From an uncultured Rhodoferax sp. (GTDB lineage Bacteria; Pseudomonadota; Gammaproteobacteria; Burkholderiales; Burkholderiaceae_C), in NCBI RefSeq assembly GCF_946221635.1, contig NZ_CAMIHB010000006.1, positions 3,522 through 67,521 on the forward strand: 64,000 bases of DNA. Reading direction: 5' to 3'. The translations under genes were made by a program, and so were the position numbers. Each line of letters begins with the position of its first letter. Within the stretch, counting starts at the first letter, position 1. Shown piece after piece: positions 7,206 through 61,575 of the stretch. A model generated the notes under the pieces. It did not search any database. It was not told the origin of the DNA and saw nothing but the letters and a program-made list of their open reading frames with translations.

Positions 7206-7822
7206 CCCAGTCCGCCGCAGTGCAGCCGCGCCGTATTGGTGTGTTTGGCGGGGCGTTTGACCCACCGCACGTGGGTCACCACGCCTTGGCTTCCACGGCG
7301 ATTGCCCAGCTGCAACTCGATGCCCTGCACATCATCCCCACGGGCCATGCCTGGCACAAGAGCCGCACGCTGAGCGAAGCTTCGCACCGCTTGGCTATGG
7401 TGCGGCTGGCCTTTGCCGATCTGCCGCAGGTGGTGGTGGACGGGCGCGAAATCGCACGTCCCGGCCCGACCTACACGGTGGACACGCTGGAAGAGTTGCA
7501 GGGGGAAAACCCTGGCGCGCAGCTCTTCCTGCTCATCGGCGAGGACCAGGCCCGCGCACTGCCCAGCTGGAGCCGTTGGGAGCGCCTGCCTGCACTTGCT
7601 ATAATTTGTGTAGCTGCTCGCGCAGATTCAACGGGGGCCAAGGGCCAATTTGATGCCCTGAAAGCACATGCGGCCGATTTGACGGTGCTGAACATGCCCC
7701 CCGTGGCCCTCAGTGCCACCGACATCCGACACCGCGCCACCACGGGCCAGAGCCTGGTCCCACTGGTTTTTGAACCGGTTGCGCGTTATATTGACCAACA
7801 CCAGCTTTACCGACCTGCCTGA
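7196..7822 (+). CDS. nadD: Nicotinate-nucleotide adenylyltransferase
   Basis: It has the [17 protein letters not shown] motif. Repeat copy A (7596-7665) lies inside it. Confidence 0.88.
7596..7665 (+). repeat. Dispersed in-frame mini-element copy A, inside nadD
   Basis: TTGCTATAATTTGTGTAGCTGCTCGCGCAGATTCAACGGGGGCCAAGGGCCAATTTGATGCC. It is AT-richer than its flanks and is translated as ...[16 protein letters not shown]... Confidence 0.7.
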
Positions 7823-8523
7823 TGACCACTTCCACTGTTGCCAAAAAAGACACCCAAAAACTCCAGCGCGCCATCGTGGATGGCCTGGAAGATGTGAAAG
7901 CACAGGACATCGTCGTATTTGACACCGAGCACCTCTCGGCCCTGTTTGAACGCGTGATCATTGCCTCGGGCACCAGCAACCGCCAGACCAAGGCGCTGGC
8001 CGCCAGTGTGCGCGACGCTGTGCGCGAAGCCGGCTTCCCCAAGCCCCGTATCGAAGGCGAGGACAACGGCGAATGGATCATTGTGGACTGCGCGCAGGCG
8101 GTGGTGCACATCATGCAACCCACCTTCCGCCAGTACTACCACCTCGAAGAGCTGTGGGGCGAAAAGCCGGTGCGCCTGAAGCTGGGTGCGGCCAAACCGG
8201 CCCAGTCCGAAGCGACCAAAGCCGCCGCCAAGGCCCCGGCCAAGAAGGTGGCAGGCGAGAGCAGCGTGCGCCGATCCAGCGCCGCCAAGAAGGGTGTGGA
8301 AGAAGCCTTCCCTTCCAAAGCTGCACTGAAGAAAGCTGCGGCCAAGGCTGCGCCGGCCGAAGCCCCCGCGAAGAAGGCTGCGGCCAAGAAGGCGGCGCCC
8401 GCCAAGGCGCCCGTGAAAACCGTGGTGGTCAAACCCGCAGTGAAGCCTGCCGCCAAGAAGGTGGCTGCCAAGGCGCCGGCCAAAAAGGCCCCCGCCAAGA
8501 AAGCGGCTTCCCGTAAAGCCTGA
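7822..8523 (+). CDS. rsfS: Ribosome silencing factor RsfS (Iojap) with a ~110 aa Lys/Ala/Pro-rich histone-H1-like C-terminal extension
   Basis: Residues 1-115 align to RsfS (DIVVFDT...[10 protein letters not shown]...[16 protein letters not shown]). Residues ~120-233 are [12 protein letters not shown]-type repeats. Confidence 0.85.
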
Positions 8524-8531
8524 GGCCGGCC

Positions 8532-8999
8532 GTGCGGCTGCTCATTGTCGCTGTGGGGCAGCGGGTACCGGACTGGGCGCAAACCGCCTGGGACGACTAC
8601 GCCAAGCGCTTTCCCCATGAGCTCAAGGTCGAACTCAAGGCCATCAAGACCGAGCCCCGCGGCTCCAAGACCGTGGAGCAGTTGTATGCGGCCGAGCGCA
8701 AGCGCATTGAGGAGGCCATCCCCAAAGGGACACGCATCGTCGCGTTGGACGAGCGCGGTACCAGCCTGCGCACCACGGCGCTGGCCGAGCGGCTCAAGGA
8801 ATGGCAGTTGGGGGGCAGCGACGTGGCCCTGGTGATCGGTGGCCCCGATGGCCTGGACCCCGAATTCCGCCATGCTGCCCACGAACGCATCCGCCTTTCC
8901 GACCTGACCCTGCCGCACGCCATGGTGCGGGTGCTGCTGATCGAGCAGCTCTACCGCGCCTGGTCTGTCAATGCCAACCACCCTTACCACCGCGAATGA
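8532..8999 (+). CDS. rlmH: 23S rRNA (pseudouridine1915-N3)-methyltransferase
   Basis: The 155 aa protein [27 protein letters not shown]... is of SPOUT family RlmH. Confidence 0.93.
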
Positions 9000-9610
9000 C
9001 TGATTTCATTTATCTGGCCTCCCAAAGCCCGCGCCGCCGTGAGTTGCTGGGGCAGATCGGCGTGGCCCACGAATTGTTGCTGCCCACGCCTGACGAGGAT
9101 GCGGAGAGCCTGGAGGTGGTTCTGGCCGGGGAGGCGCCCGATGCGTATGTGCAGCGTGTAACTGCTCTTAAATTGATAGCTGCTCGCGCACGTTGGACAA
9201 GGGCTAAGGGGCAAAACAAGCCTGTTTTGTGTGCCGATACGACAGTGGCGCTGGGGGCGCAGATTCTGGGCAAACCCGAGGATGCGGAGGATGCCAAGCG
9301 CATGCTGCGCGCGCTGTCTGGTCAGACGCACCGCGTGTTCACCGCGATTGCCATTGGATGGGGCGACAAGACGGTGCAGCGCCTGTGCGAATCCCAGGTG
9401 GTGTTTGCCGATCTGAGCGATGCCGAGATTGACGGCTACGTGGCCAGCGGCGAACCCATGGGCAAGGCCGGTGCCTATGGTGTGCAGGGCCGGGCGGCGG
9501 CATTTATCGCGCGCATCGAGGGCTCGTACTCTGGCATCATGGGCCTCCCTTTGTTTGAGACTGCGCAGGCCTTGCGCGAGCTGGGTTTCCCATGCAACAA
9601 GACATTCTGA
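8996..9610 (+). CDS. maf: Maf-like septum formation/nucleotide pyrophosphatase protein
   Basis: [23 protein letters not shown]...ADTTVAL...[10 protein letters not shown] matches Maf. The start overlaps the rlmH stop as ATGA. Repeat copy B lies inside it. Confidence 0.9.
9161..9232 (+). repeat. Mini-element copy B, inside maf
   Basis: ACTGCTCTTAAATTGATAGCTGCTCGCGCACGTTGGACAAGGGCTAAGGGGCAAAACAAGCCTGTTTTGTG. It is translated as [16 protein letters not shown]. Confidence 0.65.
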
Positions 9611-11067: not shown

Positions 11068-11076
11068 GGGGAATGC

Positions 11077-13518
11077 GTGTCTGAGCGTTTGCGCATTGCC
11101 GTGTTGAGCCGCAATTTCTCCACCACCGGCGGTGGGGCGGAGCGCTATTCCATCGCGCTGGTGGAGCAGTTGGCGGTCCGTCACGAAGTGCATGTGTTTG
11201 CGCAAGCCATTGCCCACGACTTTCCTGGTGTGAATTACCACCGGATTCCCATGCCGATGGAGCGGCCACGCTGGATCAACCAACTCTACTTCGGGTGGAA
11301 GACTTGGCGTGCAACACGCACGGGCTTTGACATCGTGCATTCCCATGAAAACAGCTGGCATGGCAATGTACAAACCGTGCATGTGCTACCCGTGAAGCAC
11401 ACGCTGTTTGCGGGTAAGCGGGGCTTGGCGCTGGCCTTACGCTGGCTCAAGGTCGTCACGAGTCCGCGTCTATTGGCCTACTTGTGGCTGGAAAAGCGCC
11501 GCTATGCCTGGGGTCTGCGCAAGCAGATCGTTGCGGCTTCGGAATCCCTGCGGGACGTGGTGGCCCAGACATTTCCCCGTGCACAGTCGATGTTGTCCGT
11601 GGTGGCGCCTGGGGTGGAAGCGGCTCCTGGCAGAGGTAAACCGGAAGTGCGCGATGCGGCGCGCCGGAGTTTGGGCCTGTCATCCGGAGCCGGTTCCTGG
11701 TTGTTGTTCGTCGGCAATGACGTGGTTCGCAAGGGTTTACCTGCTTTGTTGGAGGCATTGCGCCAGTTGCCTTCCGACGTGGGGTTGCTGGTGGTTGGAC
11801 AGGGCGACGGACAGGCACAGGCCATGGCCCAAGCGCAGGAATTGGGCTTGGCGTCGCGGGTCAGATTCCTGGGCGCGTTGCGCGACATGGAACCGGTCTA
11901 CAAAGCGGCCGATGTCTTGGTGCACCCTACGCTGGAAGACGCTTATGGCATGGTGGTGCTGGAAGCCATGGCGCACGGCTTGCCCGTTGTCGTGAGCCAA
12001 GCGCGTTACTGCGGCATCGCCCGAGAGTTGCGGGATGGCGTCGATGCCTTGCTGTTGCAGGATCCCCGTGATGCAGCGGCGATGACAAGTGCCATCGCGA
12101 AGGTATTGCAGGATTCCCAGGTGGTTTTGACCATGTCGCACGCGGCAGTGGCCTTTGCCCGGGAGCGCTCCTGGGCGCACGCCGCTGCGGCGTATGAGGA
12201 CCTGTACAAGCGTGCTGCACCGCGTTACCGTCAACGTTGGCTGGTGCTGGCCCACGCCTTCAATATGGATGGCCGCGCTGCCAGCCAGACGATTACCGAC
12301 AAGCTGCCGCATTTGGAGGCGGCGGGCATCGAGCTGGTGGTGCTCAGCGGAGTCTCTGGCAAACGGGATGCGCACTATGAGCACTACCAGCTCTGGCCAT
12401 CGGGGCCAGCGGGCATCCGTTTTGAGCTGCGTCACGTGTTGCGCAAGTGCCTGGGCCACCCCAAGGGGTATCGCCTAGTCATGGTGCTGCTGTCCATTCC
12501 CTTGCTGCCGTTCATGTTCGTCGAAAAACTGCTGCGGCCCGTGGAAAGCTCTTGGTCGTGGTGGCTCAGCGCTTATTGCAAAGGGCGGTTGCTGGCCCGG
12601 CAACGCAAGTTCGACCTCATCTATTCCACTGGCGGGGCTTTTGCGGCCCATGTGGCTGGACGCGCCTTGAAACGGGCGCTGGGTGTGCGCTGGCTGGCGG
12701 AGGTGCATGACCCTCTGGTGATGCCGGGCAGCACGCCCGGGACTGCGCAGGAGCGCATGCAGGCCGACGTGGAGCGTTTGATTTGTACCGATGCGGATGT
12801 CGCCATCTGGTTTACCGAACAGGCACTGGCCAGTGCCAGACGCCGTCATCCTCAGTTGGGCGAGCGTGGCAAGATGCTGTTACCGGGTATTGACGCACCC
12901 TTCAAGGAGCTGCCGCCTTACGTGCCGGGACCCAAGATGGTCATCGGTCACTTCGGGTCCTTGTCTGCCACCCGCAACCTGACTCCTGTCATTTCGGCGC
13001 TGGAAACCCTGATCGCCCAACGCCCCGAGCTGCGGGACAGGCTGGAACTGCAACTCACCGGCGGCCCGCTGGACACTGTCTCTCAAGCCGCCCTGGCCCA
13101 TTCCCCTGTGCGGGATCTGGTGCGGCACCTGGGGCGTATCGAAGCGGACCCTGTGACCGGCATGTCCGGCCGGGAGCAAATCTTGCGCCGCATGCGCAGT
13201 GCTGACGTGCTGCTGCTGCTGCATGGCACCGAGCCCATTTGTGCGGAGTACATTCCGTCCAAGCTCTACGAATACCTCTGGATGCAGAGGCCGATTCTGG
13301 CGACGGTGCACGGGAATGCGCAGATGGCGGAGTTGTTGCGGGGGCAGGGGCATTGCGTGGTCGAAACCAACGATGGTGATGCCCTGCCGGCTCTGACCTG
13401 GGAGCTGGAGCAACTGTTGACGCGCTGGAGCGGAGGGGGGCTGACCGACTGTGGGCGGTCTAGCTCTTACACGACAGAGGCTGCGGTTTCCCAGTTGCTG
13501 TTGGGAGTTGGGTCTTGA
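11077..13518 (+). CDS. Tandem (double) family-4 glycosyltransferase fusion protein
   Basis: The 813 aa protein has two GT4/GT-B-like halves (aa ~1-375 and ~385-813), each with the EX7E-type region. It is the first gene of the polysaccharide cluster. Confidence 0.7.
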   Translation: MSERLRIAVLSRNFSTTGGGAERYSIALVEQLAVRHEVHVFAQAIAHDFPGVNYHRIPMPMERPRWINQLYFGWKTWRATRTGFDIVHSHENSWHGNVQTVHVLPVKHTLFAGKRGLALALRWLKVVTSPRLLAYLWLEKRRYAWGLRKQIVAASESLRDVVAQTFPRAQSMLSVVAPGVEAAPGRGKPEVRDAARRSLGLSSGAGSWLLFVGNDVVRKGLPALLEALRQLPSDVGLLVVGQGDGQAQAMAQAQELGLASRVRFLGALRDMEPVYKAADVLVHPTLEDAYGMVVLEAMAHGLPVVVSQARYCGIARELRDGVDALLLQDPRDAAAMTSAIAKVLQDSQVVLTMSHAAVAFARERSWAHAAAAYEDLYKRAAPRYRQRWLVLAHAFNMDGRAASQTITDKLPHLEAAGIELVVLSGVSGKRDAHYEHYQLWPSGPAGIRFELRHVLRKCLGHPKGYRLVMVLLSIPLLPFMFVEKLLRPVESSWSWWLSAYCKGRLLARQRKFDLIYSTGGAFAAHVAGRALKRALGVRWLAEVHDPLVMPGSTPGTAQERMQADVERLICTDADVAIWFTEQALASARRRHPQLGERGKMLLPGIDAPFKELPPYVPGPKMVIGHFGSLSATRNLTPVISALETLIAQRPELRDRLELQLTGGPLDTVSQAALAHSPVRDLVRHLGRIEADPVTGMSGREQILRRMRSADVLLLLHGTEPICAEYIPSKLYEYLWMQRPILATVHGNAQMAELLRGQGHCVVETNDGDALPALTWELEQLLTRWSGGGLTDCGRSSSYTTEAAVSQLLLGVGS

Positions 13519-15422
13519 GCATTGCCTACCGTTCCGATATTGATGGTTTGCGGGCTGTGGCCATTCTTACCGTGGTGGCGTTCCACGCGTTCCCGGAGTG
13601 GTTCCCTGGTGGCTTCATAGGCGTCGATGTTTTTTTTGTGATTTCCGGCTACTTGATCACCTGCATCCTGCGGCAGGAAATGCAAAGTGGCCGTTGGAGT
13701 TTGGCATCCTTCTACGCGCGCCGCATTGTCCGCATCTTTCCTGCGCTGGTGCTGGTGCTGCTGGCCTGCTTGGTTGCCGGCTGGCATACCTTGCTAGCGC
13801 AGGAGTACATGCAACTCGGCAAGCATTTGGGTTTGGGTGCCGCCTTCCTCTCGAACATTGGGCTGTGGTGGGAAGCCGGCTACTTTGACAAGGCATCTGA
13901 GGTCAAACCCTTGTTGCATCTATGGTCGCTGGCCATCGAGGAGCAGTTCTACATTGCGTGGCCGCCGCTGCTTTGGCTGATCCTTCGCAGCCGCCGCCAA
14001 GCAGCGGGATGGGTGGTCACCTTGGCCGCTTTGTCATTCATGCTATCGGTTTGGTGGGTCTGGGGCGACCGCACCCAGGCCTTTTATTCGCCGTTGAGCC
14101 GGGCCTGGGAACTTTTGGCTGGCGCCTGGTTGGCCTTGCAGGCGCCCCAACGATTACAGTCGCTGGGTTCCAAGGGGCGCGGCCTTGCCGCCGTTGTGTT
14201 GCTGTTGGCGACCGTACTGCTCAATGCCCGATGGCCGTTCCCCGGCTTGTTGGCCTTGCTGCCGGTGTTGGCGGCTTTGGTGCTGATCGGGGTTCCATCC
14301 TCTGTTGACTGGAGCGGGCGGCTGCTCAGCCATCCTGCCATGGTGGCGCTGGGCAAGGTGAGCTACCCTTGGTACTTATGGCACTGGCCGTTGTTGAGCT
14401 TTGCCTACATCATTGACAGCGGCCAAGCCCCGGCCGGACTGCGCTTGGCTTTGGTGTTGGCCAGTCTGCTGCTGGCGTTTCTGACCTACCGGTTGTGGGA
14501 ACTGCCTCTGCGAAAACTGCCGCGCCGTTGGGTAATTGGTCTGCTGGTGCTGGCCATGGGCATCCTGGGCTTATTGGGCAAAAATATATTTGACCGCCAC
14601 GGCTTGGAGCGCATACGCCATAAGAACCTGATCCAGCTGGACCAAAGTGCGAGCCAGGATTTTCTGGATTTTGAGAAGCAGGGCCTGATCACCGAGGCCA
14701 AGTGCGAAAAACCTTTCAAATTCCCAGAGCGCGAGGTGTGTCTGCTGGCCCATCCGGACCAACCAGCCAGCGCGGTGGTACTGGGCGATAGTCACGCGGT
14801 CCATGCTTTTTGGGGCCTGGCCCGAGCGTTCGAGGCCCAAGGCCTCAACCTGGCCGTACGCGGTAAAGGCGCTTGTGTACCTGTCATGCCGGCGAAGCCA
14901 GGCGCTGCGAGTTCAGAGTGCGAGCGCCACATGGAGGCCACGCTGCGTGATATTGCGGCGGATACTCGGGTCCGTGCCGTGGCACTGGTGTTTCGCGGCC
15001 GTTATCTCTCGGTGTCCTCCACGCCTCAGCAGCGGCAAGATTTCGAGATTCAGCTCGATGCCACCTTGTCACTGCTGCAAGCTGCTGGTAAACAGGTGTA
15101 TTACTTCCTGCCGGTAGTAGAGCCGGGCTTCGACCCGCGCTTATGCCTAGGGGCGCTGCCGCTAGGGCGCAAGCCGCCGTTTTCTTGTGTCATTGACAAG
15201 GCAGGCGACGACGTCAAATCCGAAGCGTTGCGCTCCGGTGCTGCACGTGTGCTTGCGCGGCGGCCCCAGGTCCATGTGGTAGACCCGAATACCCAGCTGT
15301 GCCGCGATGGCCTATGCCCTATCCTGCAAGATGGGCATAGCATGTTCAAAGATGAGAATCATCTCTCCCAGGCTGGTTCGCTCAGGCTGAGCGAGAGCTT
15401 GGGAACAACAGCCAAACATTGA
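13515..15422 (+). CDS. Acyltransferase-3 family membrane protein with a C-terminal SGNH domain (OafA/YrhL-like O-acetyltransferase)
   Basis: The 635 aa protein has the N-terminal motif RSDIDGLRAVAILTVVAFHAF...VDVFFVISGY, a multi-TM region, then a soluble domain. It uses a TTG start overlapping the upstream stop. Confidence 0.8.
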   Translation: MSIAYRSDIDGLRAVAILTVVAFHAFPEWFPGGFIGVDVFFVISGYLITCILRQEMQSGRWSLASFYARRIVRIFPALVLVLLACLVAGWHTLLAQEYMQLGKHLGLGAAFLSNIGLWWEAGYFDKASEVKPLLHLWSLAIEEQFYIAWPPLLWLILRSRRQAAGWVVTLAALSFMLSVWWVWGDRTQAFYSPLSRAWELLAGAWLALQAPQRLQSLGSKGRGLAAVVLLLATVLLNARWPFPGLLALLPVLAALVLIGVPSSVDWSGRLLSHPAMVALGKVSYPWYLWHWPLLSFAYIIDSGQAPAGLRLALVLASLLLAFLTYRLWELPLRKLPRRWVIGLLVLAMGILGLLGKNIFDRHGLERIRHKNLIQLDQSASQDFLDFEKQGLITEAKCEKPFKFPEREVCLLAHPDQPASAVVLGDSHAVHAFWGLARAFEAQGLNLAVRGKGACVPVMPAKPGAASSECERHMEATLRDIAADTRVRAVALVFRGRYLSVSSTPQQRQDFEIQLDATLSLLQAAGKQVYYFLPVVEPGFDPRLCLGALPLGRKPPFSCVIDKAGDDVKSEALRSGAARVLARRPQVHVVDPNTQLCRDGLCPILQDGHSMFKDENHLSQAGSLRLSESLGTTAKH

Positions 15423-15429
15423 GAGATCC

Positions 15430-16908
15430 ATGACATTGAAACGATTTCAGGCGCTCTATCTCGCACTGCTGCTGGGCTTTGCCGGCGTGTTGTCCGTGTC
15501 GGGTACGATTGCCCTGCGCAATGTGCTGCACTTGGGGTTACTGCTACTGCTGCTGGGCTATCTGGTGTTGCGTTGGCGTATGGACCGGCCACTTGTGGTC
15601 GCGCTGACTGCTGCCGTGCCCTTGCCAGTCTGGCTCTGGTGTGCCTACTTGCTTTTGTTTCCGTTGATTGCCCCCGAGAGTGGTGGTGCCTGGTCCAATC
15701 TGTTGGGCAAGGGCATGTGGGGCGAATCGATCCTGACCTGGCTGCTCGCTTGGGGGGCTTTTCTGATTCTGACTCCCGCACGCCTCTCTCTTTGGGCGTT
15801 GGCGCTGGTCAGCGCGGTGCCGGTCTTCATCCATCTAGTTCTGACGGTGTTGGCCTGGGGTGGGGTGCTACAGCCTGCTTTTTTTGAAGATCCGTCGCTG
15901 CAGGCGGCGGGGCGCTCTGTTCTGGTTGTGTTGCGTGACTTTTCCCTGCTGCAAAGTCCTTTTTCTGTGTTCCCATTGGGGTTCAGAGGCATTGAACCCA
16001 TGCATGGTAATTTGGGCTATCCCGCTTCACAGACGATGTGCCTGGGTCTCGCCGTGATGTTTGCCGCGTGGCGCCAGGCGGACCGCCGCATGGCCTTTAA
16101 GTCAGGGAGCTTGGTGGCCCTGTGCTTTGTCAGCGTGGTGATTGCACAATCACGCGCAGCCGCCTACTTCGGACTGCTGATTGTTGTGCTGGCCTGCGCC
16201 ATCTATATGGTGGGGGGGCGTGTCCAGCGTTCGTCGTTGCGCTTGGGGCGCGGTGCCCTTCTCAGTGGCTTGGGGGGCACTGCTCTGTGCTTGGTGTTTT
16301 TTTATCAAGTGGTGGCGCACAACCCGGTCTGGTACTCCATGGGAGACAAGATGGCGATGGGTTTCCAAGTGAAAACCCCCAAAGATTTGCTGTGCGAGGG
16401 CTTCACTCCTGCCACCTCCGAGTTCGTGCGCCAAAAGCATGCCGACAAGGACGATGTATATATCGAATCCCTCATCGATGGACTGCGCGGTGATGGTGGC
16501 CGTGTGCTACTGGCCCGCGTAGGCGCAGAACTCAGCGTTAACAATCCCTGGGGTTGGAACGGTGGGCGTGATGCCTACCAGTACCGTATAGAGCAGCTTT
16601 GCGGTCATGTACCGGCCATGAACTTTTCCCATGCTCACAATGCCTGGATCAATCTCATTTTGGCGCTGGGTTGGGTGGGGGCGCTTCTCTATGCCTGGGT
16701 CTTGTTGTACTTCGCCAAGACGGGATGGGGCGCGCTCGGCCAGGAACAGATCTGGCCGGTGGGCATGGCGCTGCTGCTGCTGTCAATCTTTTGGCTGTTG
16801 CGTGGCTTGGTGGACGCCGTCTACCAGGAGCACTATCTGGAGATGCAGGCCCTGTTTCTGCTGACCCTATTCCTGCTCCTGCGCTCAGGCAAACCAGTGT
16901 CGGAATAG
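15430..16908 (+). CDS. O-antigen ligase (WaaL)/polymerase-like membrane protein
   Basis: The 492 aa polytopic protein has a large periplasmic loop carrying the SHAHNAWINLILALGWVG motif (Wzy_C signature H-N-x-x-L). Confidence 0.7.
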   Translation: MTLKRFQALYLALLLGFAGVLSVSGTIALRNVLHLGLLLLLLGYLVLRWRMDRPLVVALTAAVPLPVWLWCAYLLLFPLIAPESGGAWSNLLGKGMWGESILTWLLAWGAFLILTPARLSLWALALVSAVPVFIHLVLTVLAWGGVLQPAFFEDPSLQAAGRSVLVVLRDFSLLQSPFSVFPLGFRGIEPMHGNLGYPASQTMCLGLAVMFAAWRQADRRMAFKSGSLVALCFVSVVIAQSRAAAYFGLLIVVLACAIYMVGGRVQRSSLRLGRGALLSGLGGTALCLVFFYQVVAHNPVWYSMGDKMAMGFQVKTPKDLLCEGFTPATSEFVRQKHADKDDVYIESLIDGLRGDGGRVLLARVGAELSVNNPWGWNGGRDAYQYRIEQLCGHVPAMNFSHAHNAWINLILALGWVGALLYAWVLLYFAKTGWGALGQEQIWPVGMALLLLSIFWLLRGLVDAVYQEHYLEMQALFLLTLFLLLRSGKPVSE

Positions 16909-21754: not shown

Positions 21755-21836
21755 GGGTGATAACATTCCACGGTGTTGTGAACTTTTCGCGTAGCGCAAC
21801 GTCTACGCCTGTCGCAGGTGCTCCAACACCCTCCGC

Positions 21837-24580: not shown

Positions 24581-24583
24581 GCC

Positions 24584-26166: not shown

Positions 26167-26257
26167 ACAGGATGAAAAACCACGCTATAATTTGAGGCTT
26201 AGCGGGAGACGCAAAAAGAAATTAGCAGCAAGCTGCGGTTTCAGCGGATTTTCGTCG

Positions 26258-26332: not shown

Positions 26333-26338
26333 GTTTTA

Positions 26339-28838: not shown

Positions 28839-32085
<3,247 letters not shown>

Positions 32086-37933: not shown

Positions 37934-42136
<4,203 letters not shown>

Positions 42137-43164: not shown

Positions 43165-43233
43165 TTTTGCTACTGAAATAGTAGCTGCCCGCGCACCATC
43201 GACGCGGGCTGGACGCCATAAACATTGAAAAAT
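43165..43233 (+). repeat. Mini-element copy F, intergenic (between def and the GGDEF gene)
   Basis: TTTTGCTACTGAAATAGTAGCTGCCCGCGCACCATCGACGCGGGCTGGACGCCATAAACATTGAAAAATGG. Its closest relative is copy E. Confidence 0.65.
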
Positions 43234-43309
43234 GGCGCGGGCGCGTGCCTATGGCGTGGCAGGCGCTTTGGCGCTAAGCTGGGGCTCTGTTCAAGGCCCT
43301 TCTGCATCC

Positions 43310-49112: not shown

Positions 49113-52100
49113 GTGACCCTGCACCTGACCTCTTTCGAAGGCGGCAACGCCCTGAGCAACTTCCGTGTTCAACAGCTTTTGCCGCAATTGCAGGGCATCC
49201 ACGACAAGATTTCGGGCATTTCGGCCCGATTTGTCCATCTGGTGGCGACCGAATCCGCACTGGAGCCACCGCTGGCCGACAAACTGGCGGCCCTGCTGAC
49301 CTACGGCGACCCCTACGCCGGCCCCGCGGACGGCCCGACCATCGTGGTCAGCCCGCGTTTTGGCACCGTGAGCCCCTGGGCCTCCAAGGCCACCGACATT
49401 GCCCACAACTGCGGCTTTGCCGTCAAGCGCATCGAACGCCTGGTGGAGTACCGCCTGACGCTCAAGAGCAGCCTGCTGTCCAAGGGCGCGCTGAGCGCCG
49501 AAGAGCTGCAGAAGATCGCTGCGCTGCTGCACGACCGCATGACCGAAAGCGCCATGCTGGACCGCAGCCAGGCGCAGGAGCTGTTCAACGCCCTGCAGCC
49601 CGCGCCCATGGACCATGTGGACGTGCTGGGCGGCGGCAAGGATGCGCTGGTCAAGGCCAATACCCAGTTCGGCCTGGCGCTGGCTGCCGATGAAATCGAC
49701 TACCTGGTCAACGCCTTCACCACGCTGGGCCGCAACCCCACCGACGTGGAGCTGATGATGTTCGCCCAGGCCAACAGCGAGCACTGCCGCCACAAGATCT
49801 TCAACGCCCAGTTCACCATCGACGGCGTGGCGCAGGACAAGAGCATGTTCGGCATGATCCGCAACACGCACCAGTTGCACCCCCAGTACATGCTGGTGGC
49901 CTATTCGGACAATGCTTCGGTGATGGAAGGCGTGCAGGTCGAACGCTTTGTGGCCAAATCAGCCTCTGGCCCTCGTGAAATATGCGCGGCAAGCTATGAA
50001 AAGCATAGCGAAACCAACCACATCCTGATGAAGGTGGAGACCCACAACCACCCCACAGCCATCTCTCCCTTCCCCGGTGCCTCCACCGGCGCGGGTGGCG
50101 AGATCCGCGACGAGGGCGCAACCGGCCGCGGCTCCAAGCCCAAGGCCGGCCTGACCGGTTTTACCGTGTCCAAGCTCTGGGGCAGCACCATGGGCAAGCC
50201 CGAGCACATCGCCAGCCCGCTGCAGATCATGGTCGAAGGCCCGCTGGGCGGCGCGGCCTTCAACAACGAGTTCGGCCGGCCCAACCTGCTGGGCTACTTC
50301 CGTGAGTACGAGCAGACCGTGACCAGCGATGTGGACACCGTAGCGCGCGGCTACCACAAGCCCATCATGATCGCCGGCGGCCTGGGTGTCATCGACGCGG
50401 GCCAGACCCACAAGATCGAGTTTCCCGTGGGCTCTTTGCTGATCCAGTTGGGCGGCCCCGGCATGCGCATCGGCATGGGCGGCAGTGCGGCCAGCTCCAT
50501 GGCCACGGGTGCGAACGCCGCCGAGCTGGACTTTGATTCCGTGCAGCGCGGCAACCCCGAGATCGAACGCCGTGCGCAAGAGGTCATCAACCAGTGCTGG
50601 GTGCAGGGCGACCAGAACCCCATCCTCGCCATCCACGACGTGGGCGCGGGCGGGCTGTCCAACGCCTTCCCCGAGCTGACCAATGACGCCGGCCGTGGCG
50701 CGCGCTTCGACCTGCGCGCTGTGAAGCTGGAAGAGTCCGGCATGGCGCCCAAGGAAATCTGGTGCAACGAGAGCCAGGAACGCTATGTGCTGGCCATTGC
50801 GCCCGAATCGCTGGACCAGTTCAAGGCCTTGTGCGAGCGCGAGCGCTGCCCGTTTGCGGTGATCGGTGTGGCCACCGAAGAGCGGCAGCTGCAACTGGTT
50901 GATACATCCGTTGGCGGCACTAGCTCCGTTCGGGCTGAGCCCGTCGAAGCCCTCGCGAGCCCTTCGACAAGCTCAGGGCGAACGGAAGTGGATGGTATGC
51001 CGGTGAACATGCCCATGAACGTGCTGCTGGGCAAGCCGCCCAAGATGCACCGCGATGTGAAGACCGTCGCCCGCACCTTCAAACCGCTGGACCTGACCGG
51101 CGTGGACATCCAGAAGGCCGTCATCGACGTGCTGGCGCACCCCACCGTCGCCTCCAAGCGCTTTCTCATCACCATTGGCGACCGCACCGTGGGTGGCTTG
51201 ACGCACCGCGACCAGATGGTCGGCCCCTGGCAGGTGCCGGTGGCGGACTGCGCCGTCACACTGGCCGACTTCAAAGGTTTTGCGGGTGAAGCCATGTCCA
51301 TGGGCGAGCGCACGCCGCTGGCTGCATTGGATGCGCCAGCCTCCGGCCGCATGGCTGTGGCGGAGGCCATCACCAACCTGCTGGCCGCGCCCATCGAGCT
51401 GCCGCGCGTGAAGCTGTCCGCCAACTGGATGGCTGCCTGCGGCGAAGCGGGTGAAGATGCGGCGCTGTACGCCACCGTCAAGGCCGTGGGCATGGAGCTG
51501 TGCCCGGCGCTGGGCATTTCCATCCCCGTGGGCAAGGACAGCTTGTCCATGCGCACGCAGTGGAAGGACGAGGGCCAAGACAAGAAGGTGACATCCCCCG
51601 TGTCCCTGATCGTGAGCGGTTTTGCCACGCTGCAGGACGTGCGCGGAACGCTGACGCCGCAACTCAACGCCACCGACGACACCACGCTGGTGTTGATCGA
51701 CTTGGGCAAGGGCCAGCACCGCATGGCTGCCAGCATCCTGGCGCAGACGCTGGACCAGGTGGGCGACAAGGTGCCCGACCTGGACGACGCGAAAGACCTG
51801 ATCAACCTGGTGAATGCCGTGAACGCCTTGCGCGCCAAGGGCCAAGTGCTGGCCTACCACGACCGTGGCGACGGCGGCCTGCTGGCGACTGTGGCCGAAA
51901 TGGCCTTTGCCGGCCGCGTGGGCGTGGCGCTGAATGTGGACATGCTGGTCACCGAGGGCGACGGCATTTCCGACAGCCGCATGGATGTGGGCGACAGCAA
52001 GAACTGGGCAGGGCAGGTGGGCGCACGCCGCCAGGAGCTCACGCTCAAGGCCCTGTTCAACGAAGAACTGGGCGTGGTGCTGCAGGTGCGCACCGCCGAC

Positions 52101-53219
52101 CGTGCCGAAGTCATGGCCACCCTGCGTGCGCATGGCCTGTCCACCATCAGCCATGTGATCGGCAAGACCCGCCCAGCCACCGACGCGGTGGACGCCGGCA
52201 AGGGCGAGCTGCAGATCTGGCGCGACGCCAAGAGCATCTTCAGCGCCAAACTGGCCGACCTGCACCAGGTGTGGGACGCCGTGAGCTGGAAGATTGCCCA
52301 GCAGCGCGACAACCCCGCCTGCGCCGATGCGGAACACGCCGCGGCTGGCGCCGATACCGACCCTGGTTTGCACGTTTATTTGCCAAATACGGCCCTAGCC
52401 CTCGTGGAATCTGCGCAAGCAGCTAGCAAATCTGTAGCACATGAGATCCTGAAGAACCGCCCCAAGGTGGCGGTGCTGCGCGAGCAGGGCGTCAACTCCC
52501 ATGTGGAAATGGCCTATGCGTTTACCGAGGCCGGTTTCGAAGCCTTTGACGTGCACATGACCGACCTGCAGACCGGCCGCGCCAAGCTGGCCGACTTCCA
52601 GGGCGTGGTGGCCTGCGGTGGGTTCAGCTACGGCGACACACTGGGCGCCGGCATTGGCTGGGCACGCAGCATCACCTTCAACGACGGCCTCTCGGAGCAG
52701 TTCAAGACCTTCTTTGCCCGCCAGGACACCTTTGGCCTGGGCGTGTGCAACGGCTGCCAGATGTTTGCCGAGCTGGCCGACATCATCCCCGGCGCGCAGG
52801 ACTGGCCCCGCTTCACCACCAACCAGAGCGAACGCTTTGAGGCCCGCCTGTCGATGGTGGAAGTGCTGGAATCCCCGTCGCTGTTCTTCAAAGACCTGGC
52901 CGGCATGCGCCTGCCCATTGCCGTGGCCCACGGCGAGGGTTATGCCAACTTCAAGTACCGCGGCAATGCTGATAAAGCCATCGCCGCCATGCGCTATGTG
53001 GACAACAGCGGCGCGCCTACCGAGGCCTACCCCTACAACCCCAACGGCAGCCCCGGCGGCCTGACGGCGGTGACCACGGCCGACGGCCGCTTCACGGCCA
53101 TGATGCCGCACCCCGAGCGCGTGTTCCGCAACGTGCAGATGAGCTGGACCAGCCTGGACAAGAGCACGTTCAGCCCGTGGATGCAACTCTGGCGCAACGC
53201 GCGCAAGTGGGTGGGCTAA
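49113..53219 (+). CDS. purL: Phosphoribosylformylglycinamidine synthase (large single-chain form)
   Basis: The 1368 aa protein uses a GTG start and has the conserved [21 protein letters not shown] and C-terminal glutaminase (GVCNGCQM) motifs. It contains repeat copies H and G and a 60 bp palindromic in-frame insert. Confidence 0.95.
49950..50010 (-). repeat. Mini-element copy H, reverse orientation, inside purL
   Basis: The reverse complement reads TTCATAGCTTGCCGCGCATATTTCACGAGGGCCAGAGGCTGATTTGGCCAC. It is diverged, with 1 nt indels relative to the other copies. Confidence 0.55.
50926..50985. repeat. 60 bp imperfect palindrome inserted in-frame in the purL linker region
   Basis: CCGTTCGGGCTGAGCCCGTCGAAGCCCTCGCGAGCCCTTCGACAAGCTCAGGGCGAACGG. 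The arms match at 24 of 30 positions and the centre is CTCGCGAG. It encodes the S/T/A/P-rich segment [21 protein letters not shown], which is absent from E. coli PurL. Confidence 0.6.
52372..52430 (-). repeat. Mini-element copy G, reverse orientation, inside purL
   Basis: The reverse complement reads ATTTGCTAGCTGCTTGCGCAGATTCCACGAGGGCTAGGGCCGTATTTGGCAAATAAAC. It encodes [15 protein letters not shown], in the same frame usage as copy D. Confidence 0.65.
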
Positions 53220-57606: not shown

Positions 57607-59634
57607 CTAGTGTCCGAATTCCTGTTTAGGCCGTGTCTTGTGGAAGGTCATGGGCACGCCTTGTGCCGCTTCCAGCAACTCCTTGCGGCTCTGGTTGGCC
57701 ACGCTGGTTTTCATCTTGCCGACCACATGCATCTCGCACGGTTTGCAGTCAAAGCGCAGGGTCAGTTTTTCCTTGCCGTTGATGAGCTGGAGCGGTTCGG
57801 CCTTGACCTGGCCCTGTACGCCCGTCACACCCTTGGCCTGCTTGGGGCACAGGCTCAGTGAGAAGCGCACGCAGTGCTTGGTGATCATGAGGCTGACCTC
57901 GCCCATCTCCTCGATGGCCTCGTAGGCCGGCGCGATAACCTTCACGCCATGCTTGGCATAGAAGCCGTGGGCGGCCTGGTTGAACACATTGGCCAGGTAG
58001 CTCAGCGTGTCTTCGGGGTAGGCCACGGGCGGCTCCACGGCCACGCCGGGGGCCAGGCGCGCAAAGCCTTTTTCCCGCGCGCGCTCCAGCGCTTCCACCG
58101 CCTCACGCCGCAGTGGATTCAGCACCGAGGCCGGCACAAACCACGGCTGGCTGAACTGCACCTGCACATCCAGCGCGGCAAAGATGGTGGCGCCCATCTT
58201 GCTCACGTTAGCCTGCAGCGTGTCCAGCGCTGTTGCGGCGTCTTTGGCCAGGTCGCGGGGCAGGGGGGTGCGGGCCGTGGCGGTGAAGCCATCTTCATCG
58301 GTCAGCGTCAGGGCTATGCCATCGCCCGTTTCGGCCAGCACGGCCCAGACGCCGATGCGCCGGTCGCTGCTCTTCTTTTCCAGCACCCGGGTCCAGTTCA
58401 CGTCGCGGTTGCGGTTCACCTCCACACCCTTGCGCAGGTCTTTCAGACCGGCAATGGGGTCCTTGGGGAACACGCGCCACAGGCCCTTGGCCGCATGGAT
58501 GGCTTCGGCCCGGTTGATGGCCAGGCCCACCAGTTCCTTCTGCAGGTCGTAGTAGCACAGGCCGTCGCCATTGCTCAGCGCCTTGCCGTGGTCGTTCAGC
58601 TCCAGCTCCACGCTGTCGGCGTTCACCTTGGTCACCCAGCCAATCGGCTGGCCGGGGTTCTTGGGGCTGTCGAAGGCGCCAATGTCGATCTGCCGGCCCT
58701 GCACGAAGTAGTCCGTGAACTCGCGGTTGAAGTTCTGGTTGGGGTCGGGTTCAAAGGTGAAGCTGGTGGTGCCGCTGCTGCTGCGCGCCAGCGGCCGGTC
58801 CGAGTCCTGGCGGTCTTCGATCAGGCGGTCCAGCAGCTTGCGGTAGTGGGCGGTGATGTTCTTCACATAGCCCATGTCCTTGTAGCGGCCCTCGATCTTG
58901 AAGCTGCGGATGCCTGCGTCCACCAGCGCAGCCAGGTTTTCGCTCTGGTTGTTGTCCTTCATGGACAGCACATGCTTGTCGTGCGCGACAAAGCGGCCCT
59001 TGTCGTCCACCACCTGGTAGGGCAGGCGGCAGGCCTGGCTGCACTCGCCGCGGTTGGCACTGCGCCCGGTGTGGGCGGCACTGATGTAGCACTGGCCGCT
59101 GTAGGCCACGCACAGCGCACCGTGGATGAAGAACTCCAGCGTGCACTTTTCGGGATCGGTGGCGGCGCGGATGGCCGCAATCTGCTGGGTGGTGAGCTCG
59201 CGCGCCAGCACGATCTGGGAGAGCCCTACGTCCTGCAGAAAGCGCGCTTTTTCGGGCGTGCGGATATCGGTCTGGGTGCTGGCGTGCAGCTGGATGGGCG
59301 GCATGTCGATGGCCAGCAGGCCCATGTCCTGCACGATGAGGGCGTCCACCCCGGCTTCATAGAGCTGCCAGGCCTGCTGGCGGGCAGGCTCCAGTTCGTC
59401 AACCCGCAGGATGGTGTTCATGGTGACGAAGATGCGGCTGTTGAAGCGGTGCGCGTGCTGCACCAGCTGCGCGATATCGGCGATGCTGTTGTCGGCGCTG
59501 GAGCGGGCGCCAAAGCCGGGGCCGCCAATGTAGACGGCATCGGCACCGTGGTTGACGGCTTCAATACCGATCTCGGCGGTGCGTGCGGGGGCCAGGAGTT
59601 CGAGCTGGAAATCTTGCAGGGACATAGGCGCCAA
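57607..59634 (-). CDS. Peptidase U32 family protein, long form (RlhA/YdcP-like, candidate 23S rRNA 5-hydroxycytidine synthase)
   Basis: The 675 aa protein has an N-terminal U32 domain (GADAVYIGGPGFGAR...E..GVDALIVQDMG) and a C-terminal DUF3656-like extension. Confidence 0.7.
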   Translation of the reverse strand: MAPMSLQDFQLELLAPARTAEIGIEAVNHGADAVYIGGPGFGARSSADNSIADIAQLVQHAHRFNSRIFVTMNTILRVDELEPARQQAWQLYEAGVDALIVQDMGLLAIDMPPIQLHASTQTDIRTPEKARFLQDVGLSQIVLARELTTQQIAAIRAATDPEKCTLEFFIHGALCVAYSGQCYISAAHTGRSANRGECSQACRLPYQVVDDKGRFVAHDKHVLSMKDNNQSENLAALVDAGIRSFKIEGRYKDMGYVKNITAHYRKLLDRLIEDRQDSDRPLARSSSGTTSFTFEPDPNQNFNREFTDYFVQGRQIDIGAFDSPKNPGQPIGWVTKVNADSVELELNDHGKALSNGDGLCYYDLQKELVGLAINRAEAIHAAKGLWRVFPKDPIAGLKDLRKGVEVNRNRDVNWTRVLEKKSSDRRIGVWAVLAETGDGIALTLTDEDGFTATARTPLPRDLAKDAATALDTLQANVSKMGATIFAALDVQVQFSQPWFVPASVLNPLRREAVEALERAREKGFARLAPGVAVEPPVAYPEDTLSYLANVFNQAAHGFYAKHGVKVIAPAYEAIEEMGEVSLMITKHCVRFSLSLCPKQAKGVTGVQGQVKAEPLQLINGKEKLTLRFDCKPCEMHVVGKMKTSVANQSRKELLEAAQGVPMTFHKTRPKQEFGH

Positions 59635-59677
59635 TTATCCCAGCCTCCACCCCAAACGGTACACTGCGGCGCTTCCC

Positions 59678-60856
59678 ATGCCCCAAGTCCCCTCCACCCA
59701 TTGGCCACGCGTTCTCGTGCTGTGGCTGTGCGGCATCCTCGCCGCCCTGCAATTCGCCAAGATCGCCGTCGCGTTTGGCGAGCTGCAAGCCCATTACGCC
59801 ACCAGCGCTGCCAGCGTGGGCTGGGTGCTGTCCACCGTGGGCCTGGTGGGGCTGTTGCTGGGCGTGACCATGGGGCTGTTGGCGCCCCTGTTGGGGTACC
59901 GGCGCCTGCTGCTGGCGGGCTTGCTGCTTGGAGCCGGCGTGGCCCTGCTGCAAAGCCGTTTGCTGCCGCTGCCCTGGTTCTGGGCCAGCCGGGTCCTGGA
60001 AGGGGCCTCCCATCTGGCGGTGGTGGTGGCCGCGCCTACCTTGATGGCTGCGAGCGCCGCGCCGCAGCAGCGTTCCATCGTCATGGGCCTGTGGAGTACC
60101 TTTGTGGGCGTCGCTTTTGCGCTTGCGGGGGCTTTCGGGCCCCTCTTTATCCAGTCCTTGGGACTCGCTGCGCTGTTTACCGTCCATGGGATCGGACTGT
60201 TTGCGGCCGCGCTGGCCGTGGCCACGCTCTTGCCTGCAGACGCGCCGAGTGTGCTGGGCAAGATGTCCGGCCCGGCCCTGTTGCGCAAGCATGTGCAGAT
60301 CTACACCCAGGGCACCACGGCCTTGCCCGGCCTGTGCTTCTTCTGCTACACGGCCATGGCCGTTGCCCTGATGACCTTCTTGCCCCGTCAGGCCGGGGCA
60401 GACCGTGCCTGGTTGGCCAGCACGCTGCCGCTGCTGGGGGTGTGCGGCACCTTTTGCGCAGGCTGGTTGGCCCAGGCCTGGCTGGCCCCACTGCGCCTGG
60501 CCCGCCTGGCCTACGGCCTGGTGGCCCTCTGTGCACTGGGCTGGGGCCTGGGCCAGTGGGCCGGCATGGCGATCGCGCCGTTGTCACTGGCGCTGATGCT
60601 GGCGGCAGGCCTGGCCGGCGGCAGCTCTTTTGCGCTGATTCCGGCGCTGAATGAGGTCGTGGCCCAGCAGGCGCGGGCCAATGGTGCGGTGGCCCAGATG
60701 GGCAACCTGGGCTCGACCCTGGGCCCCCCGTGCTTTGCCGCCGCACTGAGCCAATGGGGGCCGCCGGGCCTGGTGCTGGGCGTCTTGCTGTGCGCCGGCC
60801 TGGGTACGGCATTGAGTTTCTGGGGTACGGCCCTGCAGCGGCGGGGCCAGGCATGA
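59678..60856 (+). CDS. MFS transporter
   Basis: The ~392 aa protein has 12 predicted TM segments. The start is the internal MPQVPSTHWPRV...; the upstream part of the track ORF overlaps the U32 peptidase gene on the other strand. Confidence 0.7.
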   Translation: MPQVPSTHWPRVLVLWLCGILAALQFAKIAVAFGELQAHYATSAASVGWVLSTVGLVGLLLGVTMGLLAPLLGYRRLLLAGLLLGAGVALLQSRLLPLPWFWASRVLEGASHLAVVVAAPTLMAASAAPQQRSIVMGLWSTFVGVAFALAGAFGPLFIQSLGLAALFTVHGIGLFAAALAVATLLPADAPSVLGKMSGPALLRKHVQIYTQGTTALPGLCFFCYTAMAVALMTFLPRQAGADRAWLASTLPLLGVCGTFCAGWLAQAWLAPLRLARLAYGLVALCALGWGLGQWAGMAIAPLSLALMLAAGLAGGSSFALIPALNEVVAQQARANGAVAQMGNLGSTLGPPCFAAALSQWGPPGLVLGVLLCAGLGTALSFWGTALQRRGQA

Positions 60857-61575
60857 GCAGCCGACGCCATACCGGGGTGGACGCATTGCGTGGCACGGCC
60901 ATGCTCTGGATGACGGCCTACCATTTCGCGTTCGACCTGAACCAGGCGGGCCTCATCCGGCAGGACTTTTACCGGGATCCGGTCTGGACCTGGCAGCGCA
61001 CCTGCATCCTCAGCCTCTTCCTGCTCTGTGCCGGTGCGGGGCAGGCACTGGCGGCGGTGCAGGGCCAGAGCTGGCCCCAGTTCTGGCGGCGCTGGGGCCA
61101 GATTGCGGGCTGCGCCCTGCTGGTGAGCGCCGGGTCGGCGCTGATGTTCCCCAAAAGCTATATCTACTTCGGGGTGCTGCATGGCATGGCGGTCATGCTG
61201 CTGATCGCCCGCCTGACCAGCCATTGGGGCGCCTGGCTCTGGCCTGCGGGTGGATTGGTGATTGCTACCAAATTCATAGCTGCTCGCGCAATGGATGCGG
61301 GGGCTATCAGCACTTTTTTCAATGAAAAACCGCTGAACTGGCTGGGGCTGGTCAACACCAAGCCCATCACCGAGGACTATGTGCCCCTGGTGCCCTGGCT
61401 GGGGGTGCTCTGGTGGGGCATGGCAGGCATGCAGTGGTGGCTGCGCCGGGCGCCAAGCTGGCAGCATGGGGAAGGGCGGTTGTGGCGGGCCTTGGCGGTG
61501 CTGGGGCGCTGGAGCCTGAGCTATTACATGCTGCACCAGCCGGTGCTGCTCGGCCTGCTCTGGTTGTTGGCCTAG
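60853..61575 (+). CDS. DUF1624 / heparan-alpha-glucosaminide N-acetyltransferase-like membrane protein
   Basis: The start MSSRRHTGVDALRGTAMLWMTAYHFAFDL overlaps the MFS stop as ATGA. Repeat copy E lies inside it. Confidence 0.6.
   Translation: MSSRRHTGVDALRGTAMLWMTAYHFAFDLNQAGLIRQDFYRDPVWTWQRTCILSLFLLCAGAGQALAAVQGQSWPQFWRRWGQIAGCALLVSAGSALMFPKSYIYFGVLHGMAVMLLIARLTSHWGAWLWPAGGLVIATKFIAARAMDAGAISTFFNEKPLNWLGLVNTKPITEDYVPLVPWLGVLWWGMAGMQWWLRRAPSWQHGEGRLWRALAVLGRWSLSYYMLHQPVLLGLLWLLA
61261..61329 (+). repeat. Mini-element copy E, inside the DUF1624 membrane protein gene
   Basis: ATTGCTACCAAATTCATAGCTGCTCGCGCAATGGATGCGGGGGCTATCAGCACTTTTTTCAATGAAAAACC. It is translated as FIAARAMDAGAISTFFNEKP. 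Confidence 0.7.

Follow-up and report, generated by a model that had tools for sequence, protein, structure and literature searches.

Can a DNA motif of almost 60 bp be written into housekeeping genes without having been inserted there? This question is raised by a 64-kb stretch of DNA from an uncultured Rhodoferax (hereafter the window; all coordinates are positions in it unless a locus label is given), in which a reading of the sequence alone had described eight copies of a short AT-rich element, most of them in frame within genes. We found that the family is an old, fixed-geometry, clade-wide motif that at several sites overlies native codons, is kept against codon bias, and is without the hallmarks of miniature inverted-repeat transposable elements (MITEs) or hairpin-forming repetitive extragenic palindromic sequences (REPs). 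Dispersed short repeats and genome-wide motifs are themselves known, and the unusual feature is the non-insertional overprinting by a motif of ~57 bp.

All eight copies were recovered at their reported places, far beyond chance expectation. With up to two mismatches, the 14-mer core TAGCTGCTCGCGCA has 14 matches in the window against 1.2 expected, and a 35-nt bipartite pattern, allowed up to three mismatches, has 7 matches against 0 in 100 shuffles. A first profile built from aligned copies detected nine window copies (E <= 4e-13) and an improved profile ten (E <= 4e-7); the additions to the original eight are a copy at 107-176 and a degenerate one in ligA (Table 1). Eight of the ten copies are genic. 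Host genes were checked with NCBIfam and Pfam, which confirmed the earlier identification of nadD, maf, prmB, dapE, purL (two copies) and the PF07786/DUF1624 gene. The AT-richness that had been noted was borne out as well, the mean GC content being 0.51 for the window copies versus 0.635 for the whole window.

Host proteins and codons at the motif sites

Insertion of 57-70 bp would add 19-23 residues to the host protein at each site. At no position compared did a copy-bearing site exceed its empty or outgroup counterpart by the length of the element, and protein lengthening was zero at four of seven genic sites (Table 1). In Maf, the element peptide aligns without gaps to the Burkholderia Maf segment VTVAKAEAARARLVASGKPAAPVL, and AARA, the part encoded by the 14-mer core, is therefore native. 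In NadD, the segment spans 32 residues, the commonest length among 124 NadD cluster representatives, and the left half of the element encodes the native strand peptide of the Burkholderiales type, (L/I)A(T/I)IC(V)AxR (LAIICVAxR). It does so as CTT GCT ATA ATT TGT GTA GCT GCT CGC GCA, by means of rare codons that end in A or T.

The U32 peptidase (23S rRNA hydroxycytidine synthase-like) offers a comparison of alleles with and without a copy, for which the gene of the window was set against that at 20136-22154 of locus L122 (L-numbers are labels for the loci of relatives). A 39-nt block reads EAIDADSTRASGL in Curvibacter sp. APW13 instead of AALDVQVQFSQPW. Over a segment of ~45 residues, the homologues fall into two classes, TALDTL...AALDVQVQFSQPWF and AADASN...EAIDADVTRASGLF. 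Both are widespread, independently of overall identity; the native class is uniform, and no intermediates were found among 120 homologues. This distribution of allele classes suggests recombination between lineages.

The remaining three sites do carry extra residues, in smaller numbers than an insertion of the element would add. The surplus of ~15 residues that the sequence-only reading had ascribed to DapE is present and amounts to 13 residues relative to the Neisseria enzyme; it had also given 4-8 extra residues to PurL, Maf and PrmB, which is correct for both PurL sites and incorrect for Maf and PrmB, where the difference is essentially nil. In DapE, a loop between two beta strands is 11-13 residues longer, and residues 59-76 are coil in the AlphaFold model, with a predicted local distance difference test score (pLDDT) of about 54.

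A true in-frame insertion is available for comparison within one of these genes. Between its two motif copies, purL contains a separate 62-bp GC-rich palindrome with 31-nt arms that are 81% complementary. This palindrome is in frame (about residues 598-630) and accounts for most of a clean 27-residue surplus at a position where most homologues have GAES. It occurs in 3 of 121 PurL sequences and is polymorphic among close relatives, and at the same spot other genomes carry other inserts, VRPEPVEG...SSART and VRRAGPPQASTAPSGG. It is a true polymorphic insertion, similar to REPs and to Rickettsia palindromic elements (RPEs), at an insertion hotspot. The palindrome thereby serves as an internal control for a true in-frame insertion, and the AT-rich motif never behaves in this way.

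The codons at the motif sites are strongly atypical. Codons ending in A or T make up 59% of those in eight genic copies versus 16% over the remainder of these genes (odds ratio 7.6, p = 6e-32), and the alanine codons GCA and GCT account for 62% of alanine codons in the elements versus 13% outside them. Because of this abnormal composition, the sequence of the elements must be regarded as constrained at the DNA level. Among five purL genes, whose third-position identity between the window and each relative is 70-73%, an A or T third base is found in all five at 23% of the element columns versus 1.8% elsewhere (p = 6e-9), and the A/T third bases of the window are retained in the relatives at 72% within elements versus 45% outside (p = 5e-7). 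Identity of synonymous codons over the five purL genes was not significantly raised (9 of 17 columns inside versus 395 of 990 outside). In dapE, the native NLWAK, which coincides with the 3' A/T tract of the element, is written AAT TTG TGG GCA AAA where the element is intact and AAC CTG TGG GCC AAG in derivatives with a deletion.

Every genic copy in the window leaves the host reading frame open, as had been claimed. The three sense copies (nadD, maf and the PF07786/DUF1624 gene) share one frame, this being the only open sense frame because the consensus has TAG at 18-20 and 46-48 in the other two. The peptide pattern that had been proposed for reverse copies holds for dapE, prmB and purL copy 2 and fails for purL copy 1, which is read in another frame, so that two frames are in use among antisense copies; CTA at consensus positions 6-8 and 45-47 shuts one antisense frame. 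Since stop triplets in the consensus close certain frames, frame use reflects survivorship.

Table 1. Motif copies and other features of the 64-kb window, with differences in host protein length where compared
Feature	Position	Strand	Remarks	Difference in protein length (comparator)
Intergenic copy	107..176 (profile match 109-172)	+	intergenic; profile E = 1.4e-16	
Copy in nadD	7594..7663	+	sense	none (Mycobacterium 5db4)
Copy in maf	9160..9229	+	sense	none (Burkholderia 4oo0)
Copy in prmB	29508..29577	+	antisense to gene	about 1 residue (distant HemK); none (three relatives without detectable element)
Copy in dapE	30692..30761	+	antisense to gene	+13 (Neisseria 4ppz)
Degenerate copy in ligA	39804..39873 (profile match 39817-39871)	-	antisense to gene; E = 4e-7	
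Intergenic copy	43165..43234	+	begins 9 bp past def stop codon	
Copy 1 in purL	49944..50013	-	antisense; frame unlike other antisense copies	+7 (Salmonella 1t3t)
Copy 2 in purL	52373..52442	-	antisense; stretch directly before glutaminase domain	+8 (Salmonella PurL)
Copy in HGSNAT_cat gene (PF07786, DUF1624)	61260..61329	+	sense; encodes VIATKFIAARAMDAGAISTFFNEK	
U32 peptidase gene	57607-59634		no copy in window and TH121, copy in Curvibacter sp. APW13	no internal gap, 672 residues (window and TH121 vs APW13)
GC-rich palindrome in purL	50925-50986		62 bp, in frame	
NTP_transf_8 gene (Pfam)	167..1150	-	stop codon overlapped by 3' end of copy 107..176	
Cell-envelope glycan cluster	11077-21800		GC 0.59-0.62	
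Two tRNA-Lys genes	26257-26414		anticodons TTT and CTT	

Motif anatomy and inheritance

The consensus over ~65 bp reads TTGCTAT-nn-ATTT-nA-TAGCTGCTTGCGCA-nATTCC-ACGGGGGCTAGAGGCC-nATTTG, giving a motif length of about 57-65 bp. Length is identical in 191 of 192 aligned copies, with fixed spacing throughout; C6, T7, A19, G20 and C21 are kept in at least 99% of copies, and positions 10, 16, 32, 54 and 62-65 are random. The flanks beyond the search pattern carry ~26 bits at fixed spacing, which makes this more than an over-represented oligomer, and an unchanged profile, with ~55 bits in total, is seen in 66 copies that the pattern does not match. Short palindromes (AGCT, TGCGCA, CTAG and GGCC) are embedded in the motif. 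The conservation is therefore not an artefact of the pattern used for searching. Three A/T tracts (12-15, 33-35 and 55-58), each consisting of either an A-run or a T-run, are spaced by ~21 bp, which is about two helical turns. Mutual information with average product correction showed that the correlated columns are solely neighbours within these tracts.

The flanking mini-hairpins that had been described did not hold up as structures. No stem covariation was detected, either by the corrected mutual information or by Watson-Crick counts for 19 candidate pairs, and for pairs 8:18, 9:17, 10:16 and 27:41 these counts match the expectation under independence. On the 5' side, GCTA-N9-TAGC is conserved as an inverted repeat of 4 bp whose spacing is fixed. 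A 3' stem of at least 4 bp can be drawn in 89 of 191 copies versus 61 of 191 shuffles, an excess for which the A/T runs would account. A possible 7-bp stem (23-29 with 39-45) includes two G-T pairs and one mismatch, and its pair 27:41 forms in 17 of 191 copies. When folded as single-stranded DNA, seven of nine window copies (z between -0.5 and +0.7) and the consensus (z = -1.5) did no better than shuffles; of the other two copies, the intergenic one at 43165 is the only one with hairpins clearly better than random (z = -4.5), and that at 61260 is marginal (z = -2.0).

Hallmarks of transposition were likewise not seen at the boundaries. There are no terminal inverted repeats, since the ends TTGCTAT... 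and ...ATTTGAC are not complementary, and conservation stops at position 3 and about 67 without matching arms. Target-site duplications were not found for any combination of boundaries with k = 3-8 in 191 copies: at most 12 of the 191 share a 3-mer (3.4 expected), and nothing appeared at k >= 4. Without covariation, with near-random folding and without terminal repeats, what defines the element is therefore its sequence, in a fixed geometry and with phased A/T tracts, and it is not of the hairpin type.

Several other identities were considered and set aside. A polar motif resembling Chi or the FtsK-orienting polar sequences (KOPS) was rejected: the bias relative to local GC skew is weak (68:104) and the trend within the window is opposite. 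By inspection, the consensus lacks properly spaced hexamers on either strand, against a promoter or sigma-54 reading, and TTGCGCATA resembles a XerC arm without an accompanying XerD arm, against a dif/Xer reading. A scan of the window at Rfam gathering thresholds returned only two tRNA-Lys genes, which are neighbours, and a permissive scan (E <= 10) around copy 43165 gave nothing relevant.

Individual copies are old, and orthologous sites across Rhodoferax and Curvibacter show that they have been inherited vertically. The dapE copy occupies one and the same position in 120 of 120 closest DapE homologues (at least 80% identity), and both purL copies are present in 120 of 120 closest PurL homologues (at least 84% identity). 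The sequence-only reading had raised the possibility that the segments are ancestral and of ordinary codon composition; in DapE and PurL they are indeed ancestral, but their codons are abnormal. Among the window, Rhodoferax sp. TH121, R. saidenbachensis and Curvibacter sp. APW13, orthology was likewise established for the copies in ligA, selO and the DUF1624 gene and for that 3' of def; the ligA copy lies at 1142-1204 of L119 (TH121) and 400-452 of L120 (R. saidenbachensis), and the HGSNAT_cat copy has orthologues in TH121 and APW13. At the def site, ten contigs showed an identical arrangement without strain-level polymorphism, and no length polymorphism was seen at orthologous sites or at strain level in the few loci sampled. 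Copies within one genome all differ at the variable columns, with no recent-looking pair among them. Orthologous sites, the lack of strain polymorphism and unlike variable columns thus give no sign of recent transposition.

A few DapE variants with a short loop are internal deletion derivatives that retain fragments of the element; in one example, GCGCCCCCGCGAAC corresponds to GTAGCCCCCGTGAAT. In the loci of three relatives with short DapE loops (L116, from the metagenome-assembled genome GCA_029865845.1, L117 and L118), the dapE copy has undergone an internal deletion, a prmB copy could not be detected, and no copy of the motif was found in 3.5-7 kb. These lineages may have lost whatever maintains the motif. 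Some PurL homologues contain an extra AVAANQSIAK-like stretch just before site 1 that resembles the antisense peptide of the motif (…AA..SIA) and may be a partial tandem second copy.

Occurrence across genomes

A scan with the exact pattern, covering one genome per species, returned at least 115 genomic stretches, and all those with a genus-level assignment belong to the Comamonadaceae. Rhodoferax, Polaromonas, Curvibacter, Ca. Aalborgicola, Ca. Egaibacter and Simplicispira are the genera named among the listed matches. Acidovorax, Variovorax and Hydrogenophaga are outgroup members of the Comamonadaceae without the motif. A subsequent profile search of these loci identified 185 copies. The DapE of the window itself is 100% identical to a protein of an 'uncultured Rhodoferax sp.' and 94% identical to that of R. 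saidenbachensis. For an estimate of density, we used the window together with the relatives' loci fetched via purL, which were not selected for the motif apart from purL itself: 29 copies were counted in about 160 kb, which is compatible with the several hundred copies per genome that had been extrapolated from the window. Copies recur roughly every 5-8 kb, in either orientation and both within and between genes.

The family is thus a genuine dispersed one, as the sequence-only reading had proposed; it is clade-specific and apparently undescribed. A literature search for the 14-mer and its variants gave no relevant paper, these genera are not mentioned in the REP surveys in the literature, and no report of an uptake sequence in the Comamonadaceae was found.

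Genic context was called by a local GC3-GC2 test (GC content at third versus second codon positions), which classifies every verified case correctly. It replaced a codon-model classifier applied to whole stop-to-stop open reading frames, which under-called known genic copies. Among 177 near-consensus scan copies, 39 (22%) are genic in an open frame, 18 of them sense and 21 antisense; an earlier classification had given 16 and 22. Since both orientations are about equally used in genes, a role at the RNA level is disfavoured. Intergenic copies adjoin the 3' end of a gene in 43 cases versus the 5' end in 23. Genic copies are in the majority in the window and in the purL neighbourhoods of its relatives.

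Copies in the window are single: inverted doublets were not seen, and the nearest neighbours are 1.2-2.4 kb apart in the same orientation. No copy lies between 9.2 and 29.5 kb, a 20-kb stretch of lower GC content with a lipopolysaccharide/O-antigen cluster. The genes of this cell-envelope glycan cluster include a GT4 glycosyltransferase, an acyltransferase-3/SGNH protein, a Wzy-like protein and an ABC exporter.

Accessory DNA also contains the motif. Ten copies were found in the 31.9-kb R. antarcticus record NZ_CP019241 (L135), which corresponds to one per 3.2 kb; they lie mostly in spacers between toxin-antitoxin, Fic and IS1634 genes and are denser than in the housekeeping window. The Polaromonas plasmid pW9NP1 (7.2 kb; L134) has one copy at 5350-5414, in a spacer ~400 bp upstream of a recombinase-family gene, and the motif is present in 11 IMG/VR contigs. 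A regular-expression search in six frames for the conserved motifs of REP-associated tyrosine transposases (RAYTs) in the window and the 115 loci (~0.9 Mb) was empty, which is a weak test.

Origin of the motif and relation to known systems

Taken together, these data lead us to favour, tentatively and at somewhat less than an even chance, the interpretation that the family is a sequence-defined recognition motif of double-stranded DNA, superimposed on codons by substitution under DNA-level selection or an uptake-like drive. A sequence-specific factor would read the motif as double-stranded DNA, probably bending it, and selection at the DNA level or molecular drive acting on substitutions would maintain it. 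At least in genes, the motif would probably have been created site by site by the same selection or drive, the overlay on coding sequence taking the form of rare A/T-ending synonymous codons together with tolerated amino-acid changes. The only well-understood process known to us that writes a motif into coding sequence in this manner is the uptake-bias drive of the DNA uptake sequences (DUS) of Neisseria and the uptake signal sequences (USS) of Pasteurellaceae. The more specific and bolder statement, that a long motif spreads and persists without insertion, by substitution or same-length replacement, in non-coding DNA as well as in codons of essential genes, across a clade of the Comamonadaceae, as a long uptake-like system or a conversion-driven selfish motif, is one that we consider possible and on the doubtful side.

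DUS and USS are genome-wide motifs found on both strands, with cores of 9-12 bp and a frequency of about one per kb. Like them, the present motif lies on both strands, in and between genes, and is written into genes by substitution and not by indels, at places where the protein is tolerant and in certain frames; orthologous sites are kept, related genera share the motif, and it is scarce in recently acquired DNA. As in USS, a GC-rich core is flanked by helically phased A/T tracts. It differs in being 4-5 times longer, with far more information and a density about 5 times lower, and in that most near-consensus copies are intergenic. Another genome-wide motif, HIP1 (GCGATCGC) of cyanobacteria, is an 8-bp palindrome, and it too is over-represented and kept at orthologous sites in coding and non-coding DNA.

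A number of observations weigh against the proposed overprinting of codons by substitution. With at least 50 bits over ~57 bp, the motif is far longer than known uptake, Chi or KOPS-type motifs, and building it by point substitution would take many steps, each needing some advantage. The non-genic position of 138 of the 177 near-consensus copies (78%) is a REP-like habit, and copies in accessory DNA (the plasmid, the R. antarcticus record and IMG/VR contigs) are easier to explain by movement. It is because of this length beyond any precedent, the REP-like location and the copies on plasmids, phage contigs and accessory DNA that we do not place the recognition motif higher. In addition, the U32 classes differ over a block longer than the element, extending at least 25 residues beyond it, and at the U32 and PrmB sites gain and decay of a copy are both possible. 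Conservation of individual copies is moderate, not absolute: the copy downstream of def is strongly diverged between the window and TH121 (L119), core segments have been lost from the purL copies of AJA081-3 and APW13, and in some lineages the dapE and prmB copies are deleted or gone.

The rival that we take most seriously, especially for the intergenic copies, is an ancient REP- or MITE-like non-autonomous element, moved in trans by a RAYT/IS200-type or other enzyme without target duplication. It would have inserted mostly between genes and sometimes in frame, the genic copies being trimmed later by deletion, and the conserved columns would be those that the transposase needs. We consider this rather unlikely for the family as a whole, and it has much to recommend it: the predominance of non-genic copies, often just past stop codons, the (G/A)TAG beside an imperfect 7-bp palindrome with G-T pairs, as in GTAG-type REPs, the precedent of in-frame intragenic REPs, that of DNA ligase included (PMC3733652), the copies in plasmids, phage contigs and accessory regions, the extra residues at the DapE and PurL sites, the good folding of copy 43165, and the fact that IS200/RAYT-type elements leave no target-site duplications, just as observed here. 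It is difficult to reconcile with four genic sites of unchanged length whose element residues are homologous to native ones, and with the failure of any site to gain 19-23 residues. The stem lacks covariation, A stands at position 17 in 133 and G in 51 of the 191 copies (the tag being mostly ATAG and not GTAG), the window copies are single rather than inverted doublets, no genome contains a recent-looking pair (the variable columns all differ), orthologous sites and strains show no length polymorphism, and the RAYT search, for the little that it weighs, was empty.

Equal lengths of filled and empty alleles would follow directly if fragments of existing copies, either single-stranded or short and double-stranded, had replaced stretches of equal or similar length at ectopic sites of microhomology, by a process akin to short-patch illegitimate recombination, oligonucleotide-like annealing at the fork or copy-templated break repair. 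The outcome would be a selfish motif that spreads by conversion and not by insertion. The discrete U32 classes, with a uniform native class and no intermediates among 120 homologues, point to a block swap rather than gradual change, occupied sites were already similar (AARA in Maf, VAxR in NadD), and the variable small gains in loops fit unequal patches. Such templated replacement should, however, carry over the variable-column states of the donor, and copies of the same genome share none; the diverged U32 block reaches at least 25 residues past the element, no donor-recipient pair was identified, and the mechanism is not known to work on such a scale. We therefore consider it unlikely. A structured RNA element, acting in transcripts as a processing, stability or regulatory signal, is very improbable. 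The possible 7-bp stem (with two G-U pairs in RNA), the many copies in 3' untranslated positions and the folding of copy 43165 would suit it, and it is contradicted by the nearly equal numbers of copies that run with and against the host gene, by the lack of covariation, by folding that for most copies is no better than that of shuffled sequence, and by the lack of Rfam matches at gathering threshold or, in the one copy region scanned, at E <= 10.

Among known mobile repeats, RPEs are insertions, palindromic and 100-150 bp in length, by which the host protein gains a peptide module. The present family shares with them in-frame copies in housekeeping proteins that are kept among relatives and, in some hosts (here DapE), lie in surface loops; it differs in not being palindromic and in overlying native residues in NadD, Maf, PrmB and U32. 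MITEs such as Correia/NEMIS are likewise small, dispersed, non-coding repeat families, from which the motif is set apart by having no terminal inverted repeats, no target duplication and no presence/absence polymorphism that changes size. The original suggestion of an insertion resembling RPEs, Correia elements or MITEs was not sustained, as no terminal inverted repeats, target duplications or covariation were seen and no length-changing polymorphism was found in the loci sampled; that interpretation is only in part correct.

The likeness to REPs of the GTAG/CGTC type is closer. These too are short, abundant, non-coding and lineage-specific, lie mostly 3' of genes, leave no target duplications, are long-lived and vertically inherited, have a TAG-containing tag beside an imperfect GC-rich palindrome and are in some cases in frame in genes, DNA ligase included. 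Intragenic in-frame REPs, among them those in DNA ligase, have been described as insertions (Di Nocera et al. 2013, PMC3733652). The present motif has no supported stem-loop, its tag is mostly ATAG, and it is a ~60-bp sequence with two A/T-rich arms. It also departs from the REPIN-RAYT system (REPINs being REP doublets) in that its copies are singletons and its genic copies leave protein length unchanged at four of seven sites. Of the defining traits of REPs, the family clearly shows that of location only.

BRE, a beta-proteobacterial repeat of 75-91 bp and about 69% GC that is often tandem (Hot et al. 2011, PMC3110155), was examined as a candidate; it has been reported in Polaromonas and Rhodoferax, mostly between genes with some copies in coding sequence (PMC3110155). 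Identity with BRE was rejected, as the element profile gave no match on four B. avium BRE sequences. Exact matches of 19-22 nt to the Bordetella BRE (CCCCCTCGGGGGGCAGCAAGCGC) are present at L120 23757-23778, L026 3496-3515, L114 1691-1709 and L115 195-213. These lie elsewhere in the same loci, and BRE is therefore a separate family in the same genomes.

If overprinting is indeed what happened, hundreds of sites per genome would be shaped by a pressure on the DNA sequence itself, one that reaches conserved secondary-structure elements of the essential enzymes NadD, Maf, PrmB, DapE, PurL and LigA and is strong enough to override codon bias and alter amino acids. To our knowledge, such codon-overriding pressure has been documented so far only for short uptake sequences and a few 8-mers. 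It would further imply an abundant DNA-reading system, with a possible role in uptake, nucleoid organisation or conversion drive, in Rhodoferax, Polaromonas and Curvibacter, bacteria that are common in freshwater, glaciers and the subsurface. The family would then be a tractable model in which to study how protein evolution and genome-level signals trade off. For the clade, the motif serves as a sharp phylogenetic marker, and it calls for caution in annotation, as repeat peptides in proteins need not be insertions.

Two further observations concern particular loci. In L105 (4700-7300) and L074 (4900-6650), which are loci of metagenome-assembled genomes, the last 40-45 bp of the type I restriction gene hsdS (encoding KQGMMQELLTGRIRLL up to the stop) are directly repeated 2-3 times together with the motif, and unrelated inserted genes lie between these repeats, an arrangement that looks like the addition of cassettes at a module made of the hsdS end and the motif. 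Finally, the species of the window occurs in many metagenomes; L137, L139, L142 and L145 are contigs from human skin metagenomes with an identical def protein and the same arrangement around def as in the window, whose organism may be a reagent or water contaminant in these datasets.

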